Positions 4,835 to 27,598 of a stretch of DNA of 64,000 bases are shown piece by piece. The notes below the pieces were generated by a model. The model worked only from the letters and a program-made list of their open reading frames with translations. It was not told the origin of the DNA and did not search any database. The stretch comes from Oscillospiraceae bacterium (GTDB lineage: Bacteria > Bacillota > Clostridia > Oscillospirales > CAG-272): NCBI GenBank assembly GCA_015064585.1, contig SVRY01000001.1:61558-125557 (forward strand). The letters are read 5' to 3'. Position numbers and translations under genes: made by a program. The number at the start of each line of letters is the position of its first letter. The first letter of the stretch is position 1.

Positions 4835-5803
4835 TTATTGGTGCATTCTTTTTTGCTGTCGTATATCGGTTCCTTGCAGGCGGAAAAAAATAAATTCACC
4901 AAACAGACGGCTGGCAATACGGTCATCGTATCGATTTCGGATTTCGCTTGAGGAAAGATTGGTATTGATAATAATGGGACGCCCCGCGTTCATGCGGCTG
5001 TTAATAAGGTTGTACATACTGGCAATGGTAAAACTATTGCCCATTTCGGTTCCAAAATCATCGATGATCAATAGATCACAGCGGAAGTACTGCTCGGTAC
5101 GATCAGGGGAGTCATCTTTATAGTTTCTGCCAAATCGCTCATATTCAAAATCGGACAGTAGATTTTGTGCGCTTGTATATACACAGTCATAACCGCCGCG
5201 AATAACTTCTTGCCCAATTGCCGTGGAAAGATGGGTTTTGCCTAAGCCTGTAGCACCGGTTAAAAGAATATTTTCACTTGTTTTTTCCGAAAACTCAGCG
5301 GCATAACGGCGGCAAAAGGACAGCACGGCACTCATATTTTCGGGATCGCTGTAATAATGCAAAGAAAAGTTCTCGAAGGTTTGTTTTTCAGGAAGTTTTC
5401 CCAATCCGGAACGGGCAACACCTGCACGGAAAAGTGCTTCTCTCAGGCATGTGCACATTTTGCCATTGCAGTAGCCGGTATCTTCACAGGAACTGCATTC
5501 GAATTTAGGGTCGGTATAATTGACAGGGTATCCTCTTTTTTGCAGATATTCTTCTCGTTTGGCAAGCAGTAGTTCGTTTTCTTCCTTTAATGCCTGCATA
5601 CGTTCTTCCAATCCGAGTTTGCCCATACGAATTGCTTCCATAATGCGAAGCCCGGTGGTTTTTAAGATCATATCCACTTCGCGGATTTCGGGATATTTAT
5701 TGTCCAGTTCCTCCAAACGTTGGTCTGCAGCGGAAATTGCCTTTCTGCGCTTTTTTTCCAGTTCTGCCTTTACACTTGCATACATTTGCGGATTGTAACT
5801 CAT
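4835..5803 (-). CDS. DnaC/DnaI-type AAA+ helicase-loader ATPase
   Basis: 322 aa. Walker A LLTGATGLGKTHL, Walker B LLIIDDFG, Cys cluster CSSCEDTGYCNGKMCTC. Its start overlaps the dnaD-like stop by 4 nt (5800-5803). Confidence 0.8.
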   Translation of the reverse strand: MSYNPQMYASVKAELEKKRRKAISAADQRLEELDNKYPEIREVDMILKTTGLRIMEAIRMGKLGLEERMQALKEENELLLAKREEYLQKRGYPVNYTDPKFECSSCEDTGYCNGKMCTCLREALFRAGVARSGLGKLPEKQTFENFSLHYYSDPENMSAVLSFCRRYAAEFSEKTSENILLTGATGLGKTHLSTAIGQEVIRGGYDCVYTSAQNLLSDFEYERFGRNYKDDSPDRTEQYFRCDLLIIDDFGTEMGNSFTIASMYNLINSRMNAGRPIIINTNLSSSEIRNRYDDRIASRLFGEFIFFRLQGTDIRQQKRMHQ

Positions 5804-21404: not shown

Positions 21405-22355
21405 ATGAATAACCCCTTCCCTTTTAGTGATTCCAACAAACGATATTATACATTTGATTATTATTTGCGTCGTACTTTTGGAGGAAAATGTGCAAAAATC
21501 ACTTTGGATGGGGGATTCACCTGCCCCAATCGGGATGGTACGCGCGGTATTGGCGGATGTACTTTCTGCTCGGGCAGGGGTAGCGGCGATTTTTGCGAAA
21601 AAGCTTCCGTACCGATCGCTGATCAGTTTGCCGTACAAAAAGAAATGATGCGTAAAAAATGGGATAACGCGCGTTTTCTTGCTTATTTTCAAGCGTATAC
21701 GAACACGTATGCTTCGTTACCGCAGTTAAAAGAATTATATGAAGAGGCTTTGAGGCAGCCTGATGTAGTGGGGCTGAATATTGCTACCCGCGCTGACTGC
21801 CTTACGCCTGAAATAGTGGCGTATTTACGGGAGCTCTCCGAGCGGACTGCGCTGACGATTGAATTGGGCTTGCAAACGATCCATGACCAAACGGCAAAAC
21901 GGGTCAATCGCGGTCATTCGTGGCAAGAGTTTTTGGATGGATATGAAATGCTTTCGGGCTTGGATGTCTGTGTACATATAATCAATGGACTGCCGGGAGA
22001 AAGTGCCGAAATGATGTTGGATACTGCCAAGGCGGTTGCCGGATTGCATCCCAAGTTTTTAAAAATACACTTATTGCATGTGCTGGAGGGGACTGTTTTG
22101 GCATCACAGTATTTAAAAGGTGAATTTTCAGAACTGTCACTTGCGGACTACGTGCGGATCGTGTGCGACCAACTGGAAATATTGCCGCCCGAAACGGTTT
22201 TGGGCAGAGTGACAGGAGATGGACCTGCTGATAGTTTGATTGCACCGCTTTGGAGTAAAAAGAAGCTGGTTGTGATGAATGAAATCGACAAAGAATTGGT
22301 CAGAAGGGGCAGTTATCAGGGAATTTGGTACAATTGCACAAAAAACAAGACGTAA
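21405..22355 (+). CDS. TIGR01212-family radical SAM protein (YtqA-like)
   Basis: 316 aa: KITLDGGFTCPNRDGTRGIGGCTFCS... is the characteristic N-terminal cluster of this family. Confidence 0.85.
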   Translation: MNNPFPFSDSNKRYYTFDYYLRRTFGGKCAKITLDGGFTCPNRDGTRGIGGCTFCSGRGSGDFCEKASVPIADQFAVQKEMMRKKWDNARFLAYFQAYTNTYASLPQLKELYEEALRQPDVVGLNIATRADCLTPEIVAYLRELSERTALTIELGLQTIHDQTAKRVNRGHSWQEFLDGYEMLSGLDVCVHIINGLPGESAEMMLDTAKAVAGLHPKFLKIHLLHVLEGTVLASQYLKGEFSELSLADYVRIVCDQLEILPPETVLGRVTGDGPADSLIAPLWSKKKLVVMNEIDKELVRRGSYQGIWYNCTKNKT

Positions 22356-22393
22356 ATTCTCACTTTTGACCGCCCATAAAACAAAAAATTCTC

Positions 22394-22422
22394 TTGCATC
22401 CCATTTTTCTTTCGTATATAAT
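22394..22422 (+). promoter_or_regulatory. Sigma-A type promoter candidate for the EF-G paralogue
   Basis: TTGCAT (22394-22399), 17 nt, TATAAT (22417-22422). Confidence 0.55.
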
Positions 22423-22494
22423 AGATACAGTGCGAAAAGAGTTGCCAAAACGGCAGCATTTCCATATATTACCAAAGAAAAGAGGATTCCCACA

Positions 22495-24564
22495 ATGGCA
22501 ACAATACCTTGCGAAAAAATCAGAAACGTTTGCCTGCTTGGACACGGCGGCAGCGGAAAAACCACAATGGCTGAAGCAATGCTTTATATGAACAAAGCGA
22601 CCGACAGAATGGGAAATACTTCTGCCGGAAATACCGTATGCGACTTTGATCCTGAAGAAGTCAAGCGTGGATTTTCTATTTCCGCAGCATGTGCAAACTA
22701 TACCTATAGAGGTACAAAAATCAATGTAATTGACGCTCCCGGATTTTTGGAATTTTCGGGAGAGGTGCATGGCGCTTTGCGCGTGGCAGGTTGTGCGGTT
22801 ATTATGGTAGACGCTAAGAGCGGTATCCAGGTGGGTACTGAGCTTGCTTGGGAAAATGCAACTGCGGCAGGACTGCCTAAGGCTTTCTTTATTAACAAGT
22901 CTGATGATCCTGAGGCTAATTTTGAAAAAGTGTTTGCTTCCCTGCGTGAAACTTTCGGTAAATCTGTTTGTCCGATCGTTATTCCGGCGGCAACTCCCGG
23001 CGCATTTATCAATTTGATTGATGAAAAGAAATATGAGTACGGTTCCAGAGGCGAACGCACTGAGTGTGAAATTACGCCTGAATACCGCCCTACTATGGAG
23101 CAATATCGCGAAGAATTGTTTGATGCAATTGCTTCCACCAATGATGACTTGATGATGAAATTTTTTGAGGGTGAAGAAATCACTCGCGAGGAAGCTGTGC
23201 AGGCTATTCAAGACGGTATTCTTGCCCGTACGATTACACCCGTATTCTCCGGTTCTGCTACAAAGTTCTGGGGCATTGGTTCTTTGATGGACAGCATTGT
23301 TGATTCCTTCCCTGCTCCTATTCATAAATCTGTTCGCATTGTGAAAGAAGACGGTTCTGTTGAAAAATTAAAGATGAATCCTGAGGGAGAGCCTGCGGTA
23401 TTTGTATTTAAGACCACGGTTGACCAGTTTGGCAGAACTTCTTATTTTAAGGTTATGAACGGCACCTTGAAGAGCGGTGTTACCTTGAAGAATGCCCAAA
23501 ATGGCACCATGGAAAAGTTTGCTCATATCTATACTGTTATTGGTAAGAAGCAGGTTGAAGTGGATGAGCTGGCTTGCGGTGATATTGGTGTTGTAACCAA
23601 GCTTGCCAATACTTCCACCGGACATACGTTGTCGCTGAATGATGTGGTATATGCTCCTGCCGTCTTCCCTGAGCCTTTCTATACTGTGGCTGTTCGTCCC
23701 AAGGCAAAGGGTGAAGAAGATAAAGTTGCTCAGGGAATTTTCAAGCTGATGGATGAAGATATGACCCTTCGCTTTGAAAACAATCCCGAAACCAAGCAGC
23801 TGCTGCTGAGTGCTATGGGTGACATGCAGATAGATGTTGTGCTGGCTAAGCTGAAAGCGCGCAGCGGTGTTTCTGTTGAATTGTCTGCGCCCAAGATTGC
23901 TTACCGTGAAACGATCAAGGGCAAAGCAGTCGTGGAAGGAAAGCACAAGAAGCAATCGGGTGGTCATGGTCAGTATGGTCATGTTAAGATCACGTTTACT
24001 CCCGGAGAAGGTGACGGATTGACATTTACGCAGAGCGTTGTGGGCGGTTCTGTTCCGAAGAACTACTTCCCTGCCATCGAAAAAGGCTTGCAGGAAGCAA
24101 TGCAGAAAGGCGTTTTGGCAGGATATCCTGTGGTTGGGCTAGCTGCAGATTTGTTTGACGGTTCCTATCATGATGTAGACTCCAATGAACTTTCCTTTAA
24201 AATGGCGGCGTCCTTGGCATACAAGGCAGGCTTGCCGCAGGCTAAGCCGGTTTTGCTTGAACCGATTGGCGAGTTGAATGTTACCGTTCCGGACGGTATG
24301 GTTGGTGATGTAATGGGTGATATCAACGGTAAGCGCCGCGGCTCGGTGCTCGGTATGAATCCTGCTGAGGGCAAGAGCGGTTACACCACCATTCAGGCGG
24401 AGGTTCCGAAGGCTGAAATGGTTGACTATACTATTGCACTGCGTGCTATGACACAAGGCAAGGGCGGATATACATTCTATCAGTCTCGCTATGATGAAGT
24501 GCCCGGAAATGTAGCTGAAAAAATTATTGCACAGGCCAAGCTGGATGCAGAAAATGACGATTGA
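22495..24564 (+). CDS. Elongation factor G paralogue (EF-G-like translational GTPase, atypical G3 motif)
   Basis: 689 aa from ATG 22495 (AGAGGA RBS); the track's upstream extension overlaps the previous gene. G1 GHGGSGKTT, G3 DAPGFLEF, G4 NKSD, and EF-G domains II-V (HGQYGHV..., GSYHDVDS). Confidence 0.9.
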   Translation: MATIPCEKIRNVCLLGHGGSGKTTMAEAMLYMNKATDRMGNTSAGNTVCDFDPEEVKRGFSISAACANYTYRGTKINVIDAPGFLEFSGEVHGALRVAGCAVIMVDAKSGIQVGTELAWENATAAGLPKAFFINKSDDPEANFEKVFASLRETFGKSVCPIVIPAATPGAFINLIDEKKYEYGSRGERTECEITPEYRPTMEQYREELFDAIASTNDDLMMKFFEGEEITREEAVQAIQDGILARTITPVFSGSATKFWGIGSLMDSIVDSFPAPIHKSVRIVKEDGSVEKLKMNPEGEPAVFVFKTTVDQFGRTSYFKVMNGTLKSGVTLKNAQNGTMEKFAHIYTVIGKKQVEVDELACGDIGVVTKLANTSTGHTLSLNDVVYAPAVFPEPFYTVAVRPKAKGEEDKVAQGIFKLMDEDMTLRFENNPETKQLLLSAMGDMQIDVVLAKLKARSGVSVELSAPKIAYRETIKGKAVVEGKHKKQSGGHGQYGHVKITFTPGEGDGLTFTQSVVGGSVPKNYFPAIEKGLQEAMQKGVLAGYPVVGLAADLFDGSYHDVDSNELSFKMAASLAYKAGLPQAKPVLLEPIGELNVTVPDGMVGDVMGDINGKRRGSVLGMNPAEGKSGYTTIQAEVPKAEMVDYTIALRAMTQGKGGYTFYQSRYDEVPGNVAEKIIAQAKLDAENDD

Positions 24565-24575
24565 TTTTTAATATG

Positions 24576-24617
24576 AAAGAGCGTTTCGGTGATCGGGACG
24601 CTCTTTACTTTTTTTGG
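24576..24617 (+). terminator. Rho-independent terminator after the EF-G paralogue
   Basis: AAAGAGCG / CGCTCTTT stem followed by ACTTTTTTT. Confidence 0.7.
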
Positions 24618-24650
24618 TGCGGGTTGTATTAAATAACTTTAAATCGCCAA

Positions 24651-24666
24651 TGTTCCACGTGGAACA
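24651..24666. other. parS: parS centromere-like site 1
   Basis: TGTTCCACGTGGAACA, a fully symmetric version of Firmicute parS (TGTTNCACGTGAAACA). It is the centre of a perfect 48-bp palindrome at 24635-24682. Confidence 0.85.
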
Positions 24667-24852
24667 TTGGCGATTTAAAGTTAAGGCGGTTTGTTTGAAT
24701 GTGCGGAACAAGGCGACAGAAGGTTTTTAAATACGACGGCTGAAAAGGAATGGATTTGCACACGCAGTGTGATAATGTGGATGCAGATAACAAAAGTGCG
24801 GAGGTGTTGCTTTTTGAAAAGCAGGAAATGGAAGCGGAACAAGGAGTTTGTG

Positions 24853-25716
24853 GTGAAAGAACGGTTGGTGTCGGTGCCGATACCGCGAAACGACAGGTTG
24901 TCTGCGATTGTTCCCATTGATCGCATTTGCGAAGAAGAAGGGCGAGATGTTGGCGAGGGGACGGAGGCTTTTTTGGCACTCTGCGAGTCGGTTCGCAAAA
25001 ATGGCATATTGCAACCGCTGCTGCTTCGCAGAGTGTGTGATGAAAAAAGTTCCTTTGGCGGGATATACCTTTTGGTTGCAGGCAGAAGGCGTTTGGCGGC
25101 GGCGAGGAAAGCGGGACATAAAGCGGTGCCGTGCTATATCGTCACTATGGACGCGAAAGAGGCGGCGCTGACGGCTGTGGTGACTGACATGGACAGAGTC
25201 AGCCGTAATATGTTTGAATTGTCGGATGCTATTGAAGAGATGCGCGTGCGTTTTCATATGTCGATTGCTGAAATTTCTATAGGGATTGGAAAAACCGAAA
25301 TATACATTGCCGGAAAGCTGCTTTTGCAAAGATATACGTGTGAGGAGCGCGGGTATATCTTGCGGAATCGGATTCCGGAAGACATTGCACTGGTGCTCCT
25401 TCAAATTCGGGATCCTGCGGCAAGGTTGGCAGCGATGCGGCAGGTGTGTGAAAAGAGAATGAATCGTACTGTGGCGGCTGATTATGTGCGTTCGGTTCTG
25501 TCAAGAAGTGTGCCGTCTCCCAAGAACTCGCTTTCTGATTTGCAGTTTTTTTACAATTCCGTGGATAAGTTGATGGATGCGCTGCGGCACAGCGGTGCGA
25601 ATGCTGACTTGGAGCGCAGAGAATATGCAGAAGAAACGGTGGTTACGATTCGTGTGGCTCACCGAGATGCGCGCCGCTGCGTGCAGGAGAAAAACTTGTC
25701 CGGTCAGAAAATATAG
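24853..25716 (+). CDS. ParB/Noc-like paralogue (ParB N-terminal domain plus HTH), diverged
   Basis: ILQPLLLR...LVAGRRRLAAARKAG (ParB box II-like) and an HTH (SIAEISIGIGKTEIYIAGKL). The start is uncertain: GTG 24853 has AAGGAG 6 nt upstream, while the track ORF begins at 24691. Confidence 0.75.
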   Translation: MKERLVSVPIPRNDRLSAIVPIDRICEEEGRDVGEGTEAFLALCESVRKNGILQPLLLRRVCDEKSSFGGIYLLVAGRRRLAAARKAGHKAVPCYIVTMDAKEAALTAVVTDMDRVSRNMFELSDAIEEMRVRFHMSIAEISIGIGKTEIYIAGKLLLQRYTCEERGYILRNRIPEDIALVLLQIRDPAARLAAMRQVCEKRMNRTVAADYVRSVLSRSVPSPKNSLSDLQFFYNSVDKLMDALRHSGANADLERREYAEETVVTIRVAHRDARRCVQEKNLSGQKI

Positions 25717-25735
25717 AATGGGCGGATCGAACTTG

Positions 25736-25770
25736 ACAAAGGCAGGGGAGACCTTGCCTTTGTTTGTTTT
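25736..25770 (+). terminator. Terminator after the parB paralogue
   Basis: ACAAAGGCAGG, loop, CCTTGCCTTTGT, followed by TTGTTTT. Confidence 0.6.
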
Positions 25771-25780
25771 GGATCACAAA

Positions 25781-25796
25781 TGTTCCACGTGGAACA
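25781..25796. other. parS: parS centromere-like site 2
   Basis: A second exact TGTTCCACGTGGAACA, the centre of a perfect 34-bp palindrome at 25772-25805, about 45 bp upstream of the soj promoter -35. Confidence 0.85.
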
Positions 25797-25841
25797 TTTG
25801 TGATCGGTAAAAACCGCAAGCGAAATTATATCGTCTCACTC

Positions 25842-25870
25842 TTGACTTTTGGCTGCGTATTTGCTATAAT
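25842..25870 (+). promoter_or_regulatory. Near-consensus sigma-A promoter for soj-spo0J
   Basis: TTGACT (25842-25847), 17 nt, TATAAT (25865-25870). Confidence 0.6.
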
Positions 25871-25918
25871 ATTTTTATAGTTTCGTTGCGCAGAGCGCAC
25901 GGGAAGGAACAGAGAAAC

Positions 25919-26680
25919 GTGGGAAAAATCATTGCTTTTGCCAATCAAAAAGGCGGAATAGGAAAAACGACTTCTGCCATTAATATAGCCGCCAGTGTTG
26001 CGGCAACGGGCAAAAAAGTGCTTCTTGTTGACTGCGATCCCCAAGGAAACAGCTCCAGTGGGCTGGGAATCAATAAGAAAGCGCTGAAATTGTCAACATA
26101 TGATCTTTTGGTGGGGCGTTCAGATGCGTCGGGGGCGGTTGTCAACACTGCTTTTGAAAATTTGGATGTGATTCCGACCAATATATCGCTTGCGGGCGCT
26201 GAATTTGAATTGATTCAGCTGGATGACAGAGCGTTTCGCATGAAAAACAGTCTGGAGAGCTTGAAGGATACATACGATTATATTTTTATTGATTGTCCGC
26301 CATCCCTAGGCATACTTACGATCAATGCATTGGTGAGTTCTGACGGTGTGATCATCCCGATGCAATGCGAGTATTTTGCGTTAGAAGGATTGTCGCAACT
26401 GATGGTGACGGTACGAAAGATCAAAGAACTGTATAATCCTTCCCTTGAGATTACCGGCATACTGATTACGATGTATAACGGACGGCTGAATCTGTCTACG
26501 CAGGTGCTTGCAGAACTTAAGAAATATTATGCGGATAAATTGTTTAAAGAGCCCATTCCGCGCAGTGTGCGTCTGAGTGAGGCGCCAAGTTACGGTATGC
26601 CTATTACCTACTATGATAAAAATTCCAAGGGCGGCGAGGCGTATGCTGCGGTGGCGGCAGAGCTGATCCGACGGATATGA
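25919..26680 (+). CDS. soj: Chromosome partitioning ATPase ParA/Soj
   Basis: 253 aa from GTG 25919 (GGAAGGAA upstream). Deviant Walker [12 protein letters not shown]; DCDPQGN; IDCPPSLG. Confidence 0.92.
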
Positions 26681-26689
26681 GGAGGCGCT

Positions 26690-27598
26690 ATGAGCAGTAA
26701 ATACGGCGGAAAATTCAGCGGACTGGGAAGAGGACTGGATTCGATTTTTGTAGAAAACACCGCGCCTGTTGGAAATGGTGTGACTATGTTGCGAATTACC
26801 GATCTGGAACCGAGAAAGAATCAGCCAAGAAAGGTGTTTGATAGGGAAGCGTTGCAGCAATTGGCGGATTCCATTGCCGCTCACGGAGTAATCCAACCTG
26901 TTGCGGTAAGAGAATCTACCGGCGGTTTTTATGAAATTATCGCAGGTGAACGCCGTTGGCGTGCCGCTAAAATGGCAGGATTATCGGAAATTCCGGCGGT
27001 GGTGTTAACGGCAGATGATCAGAAAACAGCCGAACTGGCGCTGATAGAAAATATTCAGCGCGAAGATTTGAATCCGATTGAAGAAGCAAAAGCTTATGAA
27101 AAGCTGTTAACCGAATATGGGCTTACCCAGGAAAAGCTTTCGCAAAGTGTGGGAAAAAGCCGCAGCAGTATTGCAAATTCTCTGCGTATTTTGGAACTGA
27201 CTCCCGAAGCACTGGATCTTTTGGCAAACGGAAAGATCAGTGTGGGACATGCGAAGGTGCTCTTGGGCTTGGAGGACCGTGACAGCATGGACCGTGTTGC
27301 CCAAGAAATTGCGGAAAATGAACTCAGTGTCAGAGAAACCGAATCCATCGTCAAAAAACTGAATCGATCGGTTACATTGACACCGCCTGAAGTGATTGAT
27401 GAAGAACTGCCGGCACTGCCCAAAGTGGATTATGTGGCTGAATTGGAGAGCAGAGTCTCTACCAGATTGGGCAGACGTGTAAAAATCATGGGAAAAGGGA
27501 AGAGTAAACGCATTGAATTGTATTTTGAAGACAATGAAGACCTGGAAGAACTATTGATGAAGGTCTGCGGTAAAGATATTTTTAACGACGATATTTGA
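26690..27598 (+). CDS. spo0J: Chromosome partitioning protein ParB/Spo0J
   Basis: 302 aa: GLGRGLDSI, NQPRKVF, GVIQPVAVR, IIAGERRWRAAKMAG, and the HTH LTQEKLSQSVGKSRSSIANSLR. Confidence 0.92.
   Translation: MSSKYGGKFSGLGRGLDSIFVENTAPVGNGVTMLRITDLEPRKNQPRKVFDREALQQLADSIAAHGVIQPVAVRESTGGFYEIIAGERRWRAAKMAGLSEIPAVVLTADDQKTAELALIENIQREDLNPIEEAKAYEKLLTEYGLTQEKLSQSVGKSRSSIANSLRILELTPEALDLLANGKISVGHAKVLLGLEDRDSMDRVAQEIAENELSVRETESIVKKLNRSVTLTPPEVIDEELPALPKVDYVAELESRVSTRLGRRVKIMGKGKSKRIELYFEDNEDLEELLMKVCGKDIFNDDI

Follow-up and report, generated by a model that had tools for sequence, protein, structure and literature searches.

Organisation of the par locus

The DNA analysed here is a 64-kb stretch (the window) from an uncultured gut or rumen Oscillospiraceae bacterium. 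It contains a chromosomal partition locus of the ParABS type, in which two copies of the centromere sequence parS bracket a gene for a diverged ParB paralogue directly upstream of soj and spo0J. Each of the two copies lies at the centre of a longer perfect palindrome. On the plus strand, the order is a radical-SAM gene, an EF-G-like gene, a terminator, palindrome 1, the ParB-family paralogue, a second terminator, palindrome 2, soj, spo0J and serS. The features that matter for the following are:

24576-24606, plus strand: intrinsic terminator of the upstream EF-G-like gene, a 14-pair stem followed by the T-run ACTTTTTTTG
24634-24683, no strand: palindrome 1, perfect and without spacer, 50 bp, arms of 25, parS1 at its centre
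24651-24666, no strand: parS1, TGTTCCACGTGGAACA, the upstream and clade-specific site
24734-24737, plus strand: invariant CGAC, the core of a TTCGAC-like motif, given by invariant alignment columns in a poorly conserved spacer
24768-24776, plus strand: probable extended -10 element of the paralogue promoter, GTGTGATAA, with TG.TA invariant
24814-25716, plus strand: paralogue gene of the ParB family, 300 aa, with ParB_N, HTH and a Noc-type C-terminal domain
25735-25764, plus strand: intrinsic terminator of the paralogue gene, a 13-pair stem followed by TGTTTTGG
25772-25805, no strand: palindrome 2, perfect and without spacer, 34 bp, arms of 17, parS2 at its centre
25781-25796, no strand: parS2, TGTTCCACGTGGAACA, the downstream and ancient site, located between the noc position and soj
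25842-25870, plus strand: soj-spo0J promoter, TTGACT-17-TATAAT with TG, 11 of 12 matches, kept in all loci of the clade
25919-26680, plus strand: soj (ParA ATPase), 253 aa, Pfam AAA_31 with 2.5e-67; the GTG start agrees with the relatives
26690-27598, plus strand: spo0J (ParB), predicted parS binder, with recognition residues and cytidine triphosphate (CTP) motifs intact

Exactly two copies of TGTTCCACGTGGAACA are present, at 24651-24666 and 25781-25796, and both match the consensus TGTTNCACGTGNAACA without any deviation. As stated in a preliminary description of this DNA, there are no other copies: even with up to three mismatches allowed, no third match was found in the 64-kb window. Two or more matches of the 16-mer appeared in just 3 of 100 shuffles. 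By their sequence, the two 16-mers are the chromosomal centromere sites (parS) of a ParABS partition system, and no new category is needed for them. This had been proposed before and is now supported by the cognate, parS-type Spo0J that is encoded just downstream. The GC skew is positive over the whole window and shows no switch, which places the origin outside the window.

The extended palindromes of the window

Palindrome 1 had initially been described as a perfect palindrome of 48 bp. It is indeed perfect and centred on parS, but there is one more pair on each side, so that its length is 50 bp. The 34 bp given for palindrome 2 (25772-25805, arms of 17) needed no correction. Beyond the 16-mer, palindrome 1 comprises 17 and palindrome 2 comprises 9 additional symmetric positions, which would be expected by chance with probabilities of approximately 4^-17 and 4^-9. 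The extra symmetry at both sites cannot be due to chance. When folded as single-stranded DNA, palindrome 1 reaches -24.3 kcal/mol (z = -12.5) and palindrome 2 reaches -14.4 kcal/mol, in comparison to -3.6 kcal/mol for the bare 16-mer.

The arms of the two sites were at first taken to be unrelated beyond a shared core of 20 bp. This view has to be given up, since a stretch of 37 nt is 84% identical between the two sites (ATCGCCAATG versus ATCACAAATG) and the two differences between their arms are each mirrored in both arms of the respective site. Next to the 20-bp core, 8 of 10 arm positions are common to both sites, and palindrome 1 runs on for 8 bp past anything that it has in common with palindrome 2.

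Metagenome assemblers are able to create inverted duplications at palindromes, and the extended symmetry might accordingly be an artefact of assembly or sequencing, caused by fold-back at a palindromic k-mer. However, both palindromes are base-for-base identical across five independent Joint Genome Institute (JGI) metagenome assemblies from different samples, and for this reason we rejected an artefact. Moreover, the arms end after 17-25 nt and the flanks run on into different, syntenic genes. The probability that remains for this explanation is negligible.

Conservation of the two sites and of their arms

Eleven loci of the clade with the paralogue were examined; in L001 and L081-L092, the paralogue identity is 55-70%. 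All 11 possess a parS-type site upstream of the paralogue, which is the exact 16-mer in nine of them and has one mismatch in L082 and L092. The exact 16-mer is also present downstream of the paralogue in each of the 11 loci. At either position, parS directly follows a terminator in most of the loci, and in the relatives the upstream terminator abuts parS. Among the other Oscillospirales loci with a canonical noc gene, most have one to four parS sites between noc and soj. A parS upstream of a canonical noc was seen in L026 only. The site downstream of the paralogue is therefore old, whereas the upstream site is an innovation of the clade.

The lengths of the perfect arms at the upstream site are 25 (window), 18, 15, 14, at least 13, 11, 10, 9 and 9; the copies with a mismatch in the core have arms of 7 (L092) and 0 (L082). 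At the downstream site, the window has arms of 17, and all relatives have arms of 8-9. This means that the upstream site is extended in 5 of 10 and the downstream site in 1 of 11 cases, with the reservation that the lineages are not independent of each other. The arm sequences at the upstream site vary by lineage. Even the nearest relatives possess other arms (GTCAA in L081, GGAAA in L089), with recognition-helix residues of Spo0J as in the window and with paralogues that are 70% identical. Several relatives without any extension (arms of 8-10) retain the same locus architecture. The earlier assumption that the extended symmetry is not needed for canonical binding agrees well with these data: the extension is lineage-specific, and the orthologous sites keep the 16-mer with arms that are mostly 8-15 long and have other sequences.

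The sites are also dynamic, and some of the loci show local duplications around parS. Approximately 60 nt of the left flank plus parS are repeated in both intergenic regions of L089 (606-681 and 1718-1793), and L001 carries two parS copies 46 bp apart (4899-4960). The site of L092 (1-41) has TTGACAAAT as a direct repeat on either side, and the start of the contig carries a degenerate half-site, TGTTGCAC.

Excess of symmetry at parS sites in general

According to the preliminary description, the extended symmetry would be incidental if other parS copies in the genome lacked it and both proteins bound only the 16-bp core. Other parS copies elsewhere do extend, far above chance, and the phenomenon is therefore a general one and not special to this locus or to the paralogue. 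We examined 215 distinct symmetric parS sites, which came from unrelated ParB loci and from metagenome sequences scanned for the exact 16-mer. The expected numbers were derived from flanks cross-paired between sites and from partner flanks shifted by 1-8 nt:

At least 4 extra symmetric positions: 35 sites observed, 1.7-2.7 expected
At least 6 extra symmetric positions: 19 sites observed, about 0.2 expected
At least 8 extra symmetric positions: 8 sites observed, below 0.1 expected

Extended symmetry is thus present at approximately 10-16% of the parS sites (one in six to ten), which is about 15-100 times above the expectation from local composition. The sequences of the extension arms are idiosyncratic among the 215 sites. 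Their edges are sharp, as the symmetry drops to 0.26 right past the first mismatch, and imperfect (decayed) palindromes are nearly absent around the parS sites examined. At the flank positions 9-11, there is a preference for an A-rich left and a T-rich right side (219 sites). The two sites of the window (+17 and +9) are the extreme of this general distribution, and the arm of 25 exceeds those of all of the approximately 290 other parS-like sites examined. Zero-spacer palindromes without parS from the same 1.41 Mb have a per-step extension probability of about 0.33 up to an arm of 8 and of 0.6-0.8 thereafter, as is the case for parS. For arms above 9, their distribution has the heavy tail seen at parS. 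To our knowledge, the general excess of symmetry at parS has not been reported previously, and literature searches on parS in connection with cruciforms or extended palindromes returned nothing relevant.

Cores of the Noc-binding site (NBS, ATTTCCCGGGAAAT) were also found within longer perfect palindromes on two unrelated metagenome contigs (L150, 13095-13120, arm of 13; L192, 7688-7709, arm of 11), so the tendency to extend is not confined to parS. On L099, another unrelated metagenome contig, a perfect palindrome of 62 bp (220-281) lies 4 nt from a parS (201-216). The metagenome-assembled genome L038 of a member of the Hyphomicrobiales has three parS sites within 550 bp (at 672, 992 and 1204), which have the same 14-nt arms (ACAAAA-TGTTTCAC) and differ in the flanks beyond. 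Either the copies were duplicated recently, or this genome has an extended consensus of its own.

Spo0J and the bracketed paralogue

For the comparison of the two ParB-like proteins, we used the residue numbering of Caulobacter ParB, and the four specificity positions and the conserved contacts as they were defined for ParB and Noc (PMC7383237). R173 is invariant among parS-specific variants, specificity for NBS is conferred by Q173, K179, K184 and R201, and N178 and R204 are conserved DNA contacts of both ParB and Noc (PMC7383237). The Spo0J of the window has R173, N178, S179, E184 and G201 together with H-A-K, GERRWRA and ENIQREDL, which is a signature of the parS type, and it is predicted to be the parS binder of the locus.

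The paralogue most likely starts with the TTG at 24814. The resulting product of 300 aa is identical to the database protein P0001, which disfavours the first possible start of the open reading frame at 24691. Pfam assigns the domains ParB_N and HTH_ParB. The protein has E173, G178, K179, R184 and D201, the sequence I-A-L (with L204), GRRRLAA as box II and TDMDRVSR as box III. The pattern of E173, G178, D/E201, L204 and TDxD is uniform in all 11 clade members. That the sites bracket a diverged ParB paralogue, as had been noted before, is evident from box II, which reads GRRRLAA in the paralogue versus GERRWRA in the downstream Spo0J; the two arginines are kept in the paralogue.

The paralogue has the same position upstream of soj-spo0J as Noc and shares with it ParB_N, the HTH and the type of C-terminal domain. 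In nearly all other Oscillospirales/Clostridia loci examined, the gene at this position encodes a protein that is clearly of the Noc type, with Q173, K179, mostly K/R184, R201, N178, H-A-R, GERRLRA and ENxQRxDL, the exceptions being two divergent proteins (L018 and L025). In contrast, the paralogue lacks the residues Q173, R201, N178 and R204 characteristic of Noc, has G(K/R)RR instead of GERR in box II and replaces ENxQRxDL of box III by TDxD. The Noc model TIGR04285 scores 94.7 bits with the paralogue and does not reach the family cutoff of 315. Nevertheless, this model aligns up to position 254/255 on the paralogue, but only up to 196 on Spo0J, the C-terminal motif of the paralogue is common to the Noc-type proteins P0023-25, and its best matches among solved structures are those of Noc (7NG0 and 7NFU). 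Across 15 homologues, which are 53-69% identical to the protein of the window, 84 of approximately 300 alignment columns are invariant. This indicates that the paralogue is under constraint and is not a pseudogene. About 22 homologues from a narrow clade make up the family, and beyond them the identity drops to 34%. At the sequence level, the paralogue is a conserved, degenerate descendant of Noc, in which the DNA-contact residues of both the parS type and the NBS type and the CTPase residues of box III are lost.

With the substitution N121S in box III, Noc binds CTP more weakly and is deprived of both hydrolysis and spreading (PMC8429893). Since box III is changed in the paralogue, it should not cycle as a CTP clamp. 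Furthermore, a canonical recognition of parS, NBS or the palindrome arms by this protein appears unlikely. An NBS search of the 64-kb window gave one match with two mismatches, which is at chance level, and hence no NBS site. The idea that the paralogue reads the extended arms, which had been put forward as one possible meaning of the locus, was not supported, because the arms differ among species whose paralogues are 55-70% identical and because the protein has E173, G178, D/E201 and L204.

Two additional traits set the paralogue family apart. Its N-terminus, MKSRKWKRNKEF in the window, is basic, and the strongly basic peptide MKSRKWKRK at this end is conserved (24814-24850 in the window, homologues P0002-P0018). 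In addition, there is an insertion of 7 residues (SSFGG) before box II (P0002-P0018). Noc-type relatives have neither of them.

Origin of the arms

We consider it probable, although far from certain, that the locus consists of ordinary parS sites plus a degenerate Noc-like gene, and that the long arms would be lineage-specific expansions by template switching and not a recognition element. Two cases could be polarised with the help of outgroups. L001, L083 and L088 have the left flank TTTTTGAT, a part of the terminator T-tract, in common. Of these three, only the sister pair L083/L088 possesses the mirrored sequence ATCAAA(A) as its right arm. Likewise, the right flank ATTGACAAA is common to L087 and L092, and its mirrored left arm is found only in L087. 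In both cases, the reverse complement of one flank has overwritten the other, which is the signature of template switching during replication. For the arms of the window itself, no such polarity can be assigned, since neither flank is shared by its nearest relatives.

Template switching is known to homogenise and to expand the arms of inverted repeats (PMC13100816, PMC8794818, PMC7202029). The arms display the corresponding hallmarks, namely a perfect inverted copy adjoining a hairpin seed and a sharp boundary, beyond which the symmetry does not exceed chance. Homogenisation by this process is also compatible with the mirrored differences that distinguish the two sites of the window. The resemblance to template-switch (quasipalindrome) mutagenesis, as described in the E. 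coli assays of the Lovett laboratory (PMC7202029), by Monttinen and Loytynoja (PMC8794818) and for the expansion of inverted repeats in yeast promoters (PMC13100816), comprises the perfect, sharp-edged inverted copies of variable length beside a pre-existing palindrome, the one ancestral and the other overwritten flank, and the symmetrised arm differences. For the parS arms, this mechanism is deduced from comparative patterns.

Under the template-switch reading, the perfect 16-bp palindrome would seed a hairpin, at which the polymerase would replace one flank, in single events, by an inverted copy of the other. By analogy with the ParB family, Spo0J would nucleate at each parS, bind CTP, close as a clamp and slide outwards. 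The partition complex would thereby be densest over the region that contains the bracketed gene of approximately 1.1 kb and the soj-spo0J promoter. The terminators, which are located a few bases 5' of each parS, might shield the nucleation sites from incoming RNA polymerase. The patterns described above suggest that the arms would have no sequence-specific reader. We know of no description of template switching at bacterial centromere sites, and none was found in the literature searched.

Several observations do not fit easily with an origin by template switching alone. The near-absence of decayed palindromes could equally be explained by purifying selection on perfect symmetry, and the mirrored differences in the arms of the window sites would also be in accordance with a selected symmetric element. 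About half of the lineages have an extended upstream site, as opposed to 1 of 11 loci for the downstream site, a contrast which a purely mutational process predicts only if the downstream flanks are constrained. In addition, the three parS copies of L038 have the same 14-nt arms, which may therefore be maintained within this genome, and the window arm of 25 is longer than that of any of the approximately 290 other parS-like sites.

Part of these observations would be expected if the palindromes were selected DNA structures, which form cruciforms or hairpins by extrusion when the DNA is negatively supercoiled or replicated and serve as an off-switch for parS, as a landmark for ParB/SMC loading or as a roadblock. 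Here, the symmetry itself would be the selected property. The large general excess of perfect extensions around parS, their sharp edges with hardly any decayed palindromes, the mirrored differences, the very stable hairpins (-24.3 and -14.4 versus -3.6 kcal/mol for the core), the identical arms in L038 and the contrast between upstream and downstream sites all agree with such a selection. However, the arms differ at orthologous sites next to paralogues of 55-70% identity, relatives without an extension have the same architecture, and the downstream site is extended in the window only. Extrusion would also put the centre of parS into the hairpin loop and thereby destroy the binding site of ParB. 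Besides, a similar heavy tail exists in palindromes without parS, and no link between parS and cruciforms was found in the literature searched. We therefore regard a selected structure as unlikely, though not negligibly so. An extended sequence-specific recognition is considerably less probable still. It would require a species-specific site of approximately 34 bp, (G/A)ATCrCmAA-parS-TTkGyGAT(C/T), which is present in both copies and bound by Spo0J or the paralogue. The agreement of both sites at 8 of 10 arm positions, the A-rich and T-rich preference at the flank positions 9-11 of 219 sites, the conservation of the paralogue family and the appearance of the upstream site in the same clade might be interpreted in this direction. 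On the other hand, the closest relatives have quite different arms (GTCAA and GGAAA) at unchanged recognition-helix residues of Spo0J and with 70% identical paralogues, palindrome 1 goes 8 bp beyond any part that is common to palindrome 2, and the paralogue is acidic at positions 173 and 201 and lacks N178 and R204 (PMC7383237).

It has also to be considered that the palindromes act at the level of RNA or transcription. The hairpins might back up the terminators, insulate the paralogue gene and soj-spo0J against read-through or antisense transcription or provide sites for RNase III, or bound ParB might autoregulate both promoters. This would be consistent with the location of both palindromes 5-25 nt 3' of an intrinsic terminator and 5' of a promoter, with the terminator-like score of the minus strand of palindrome 1, and with the distance between the downstream parS and the -35 element of soj, which falls into two classes that are two helical turns apart. 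However, no T-run follows either palindrome on the plus strand, genuine terminators are already present 5' of both, and there are no genes on the minus strand that need protection. Gene order and promoters are the same in relatives without arms. An Rfam scan of 24300-26000 yielded nothing but miRNA-hairpin noise far under the gathering thresholds, for which reason a known RNA element at the locus was rejected. Autoregulation by ParB would require just the 16-mer. A regulation of both promoters by ParB bound at parS is plausible as such, but an explanation of the arms on the RNA or transcription level seems rather improbable to us.

Relation to known systems

The same 16-bp core is known from the parS/Spo0J-Soj system of the Firmicutes (B. 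subtilis consensus TGTTNCACGTGAAACA), and the window also agrees with it in having a cognate ParB with R173, G201 and intact CTP motifs and in the clustering of the sites at soj-spo0J. In contrast to the parS of B. subtilis, both half-sites of the window carry C, which makes the core perfectly symmetric. One parS site of B. subtilis is located inside spo0J, whereas the sites of the window are intergenic and follow terminators. Moreover, they stand on either side of the gene at the noc position and lie within perfect palindromes of 50 or 34 bp. The locus is a ParABS centromere and as such an element of a known kind, although its arrangement is specific to the clade, and the long arms are probably incidental to it.

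A more far-reaching interpretation would be that perfect symmetry beyond parS is selected across bacteria. Arms at about 10-16% of the sites would then tune the loading of ParB and SMC by extrusion or couple it to supercoiling or replication, and a Noc descendant that is dead for both CTPase and recognition would work together with a specialised centromere in this clade. We think that this combination is improbable. In any case, the general excess of symmetry at parS and the recognition-dead Noc derivative are worth a follow-up. A mutational excess would show that palindromic protein-binding sites of bacteria grow by template switching, and a selected one would add a structural layer to centromere function. 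The degenerate Noc in a small clade of the Oscillospiraceae represents a natural experiment on what becomes of the ParB/Noc scaffold once it is no longer a site-specific CTP clamp.

Neighbouring promoters and genes

The spacer between palindrome 1 and the paralogue gene has a length of approximately 150 nt and contains the probable extended -10 element, which reads TGTGATACAAT or CGTGATACACT in the relatives. A TTGACA to the right of the upstream site in L081, L087 and L092 raised the possibility that this parS overlaps the promoter of the paralogue. This was discarded, since TTGACA is not conserved and the conserved extended -10 element is located about 100 nt further downstream.

Approximately 35 nt 5' of the extended -10 element, a motif similar to TTCGAC(C/T/A)GCA (24730-24740 in the window) is present in 11 of 11 clade loci. 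Its similarity to the Spo0A box TGTCGAA, read as the reverse complement, would suggest that the degenerate noc gene is under sporulation control.

The second site had been located about 45 bp upstream of a near-consensus promoter of soj-spo0J, and this distance is confirmed, as the promoter at 25842-25870 begins 45 nt past the second 16-mer. Among the clade loci (window 25797-25841; L081-L092), the downstream parS and the -35 element of soj are separated by either 22-25 nt or 43-45 nt. These two classes are about two turns of the helix apart, as though the same helical face were retained.

The gene that adjoins parS1 on the upstream side encodes a paralogue of the EF-G family of GTPases (22279-24564 in the window), and its synteny with the par locus holds for the whole clade. 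The EF-G-like protein is called with 690 aa in the relatives, so that the start in the window probably lies 3' of the first ATG of the open reading frame.

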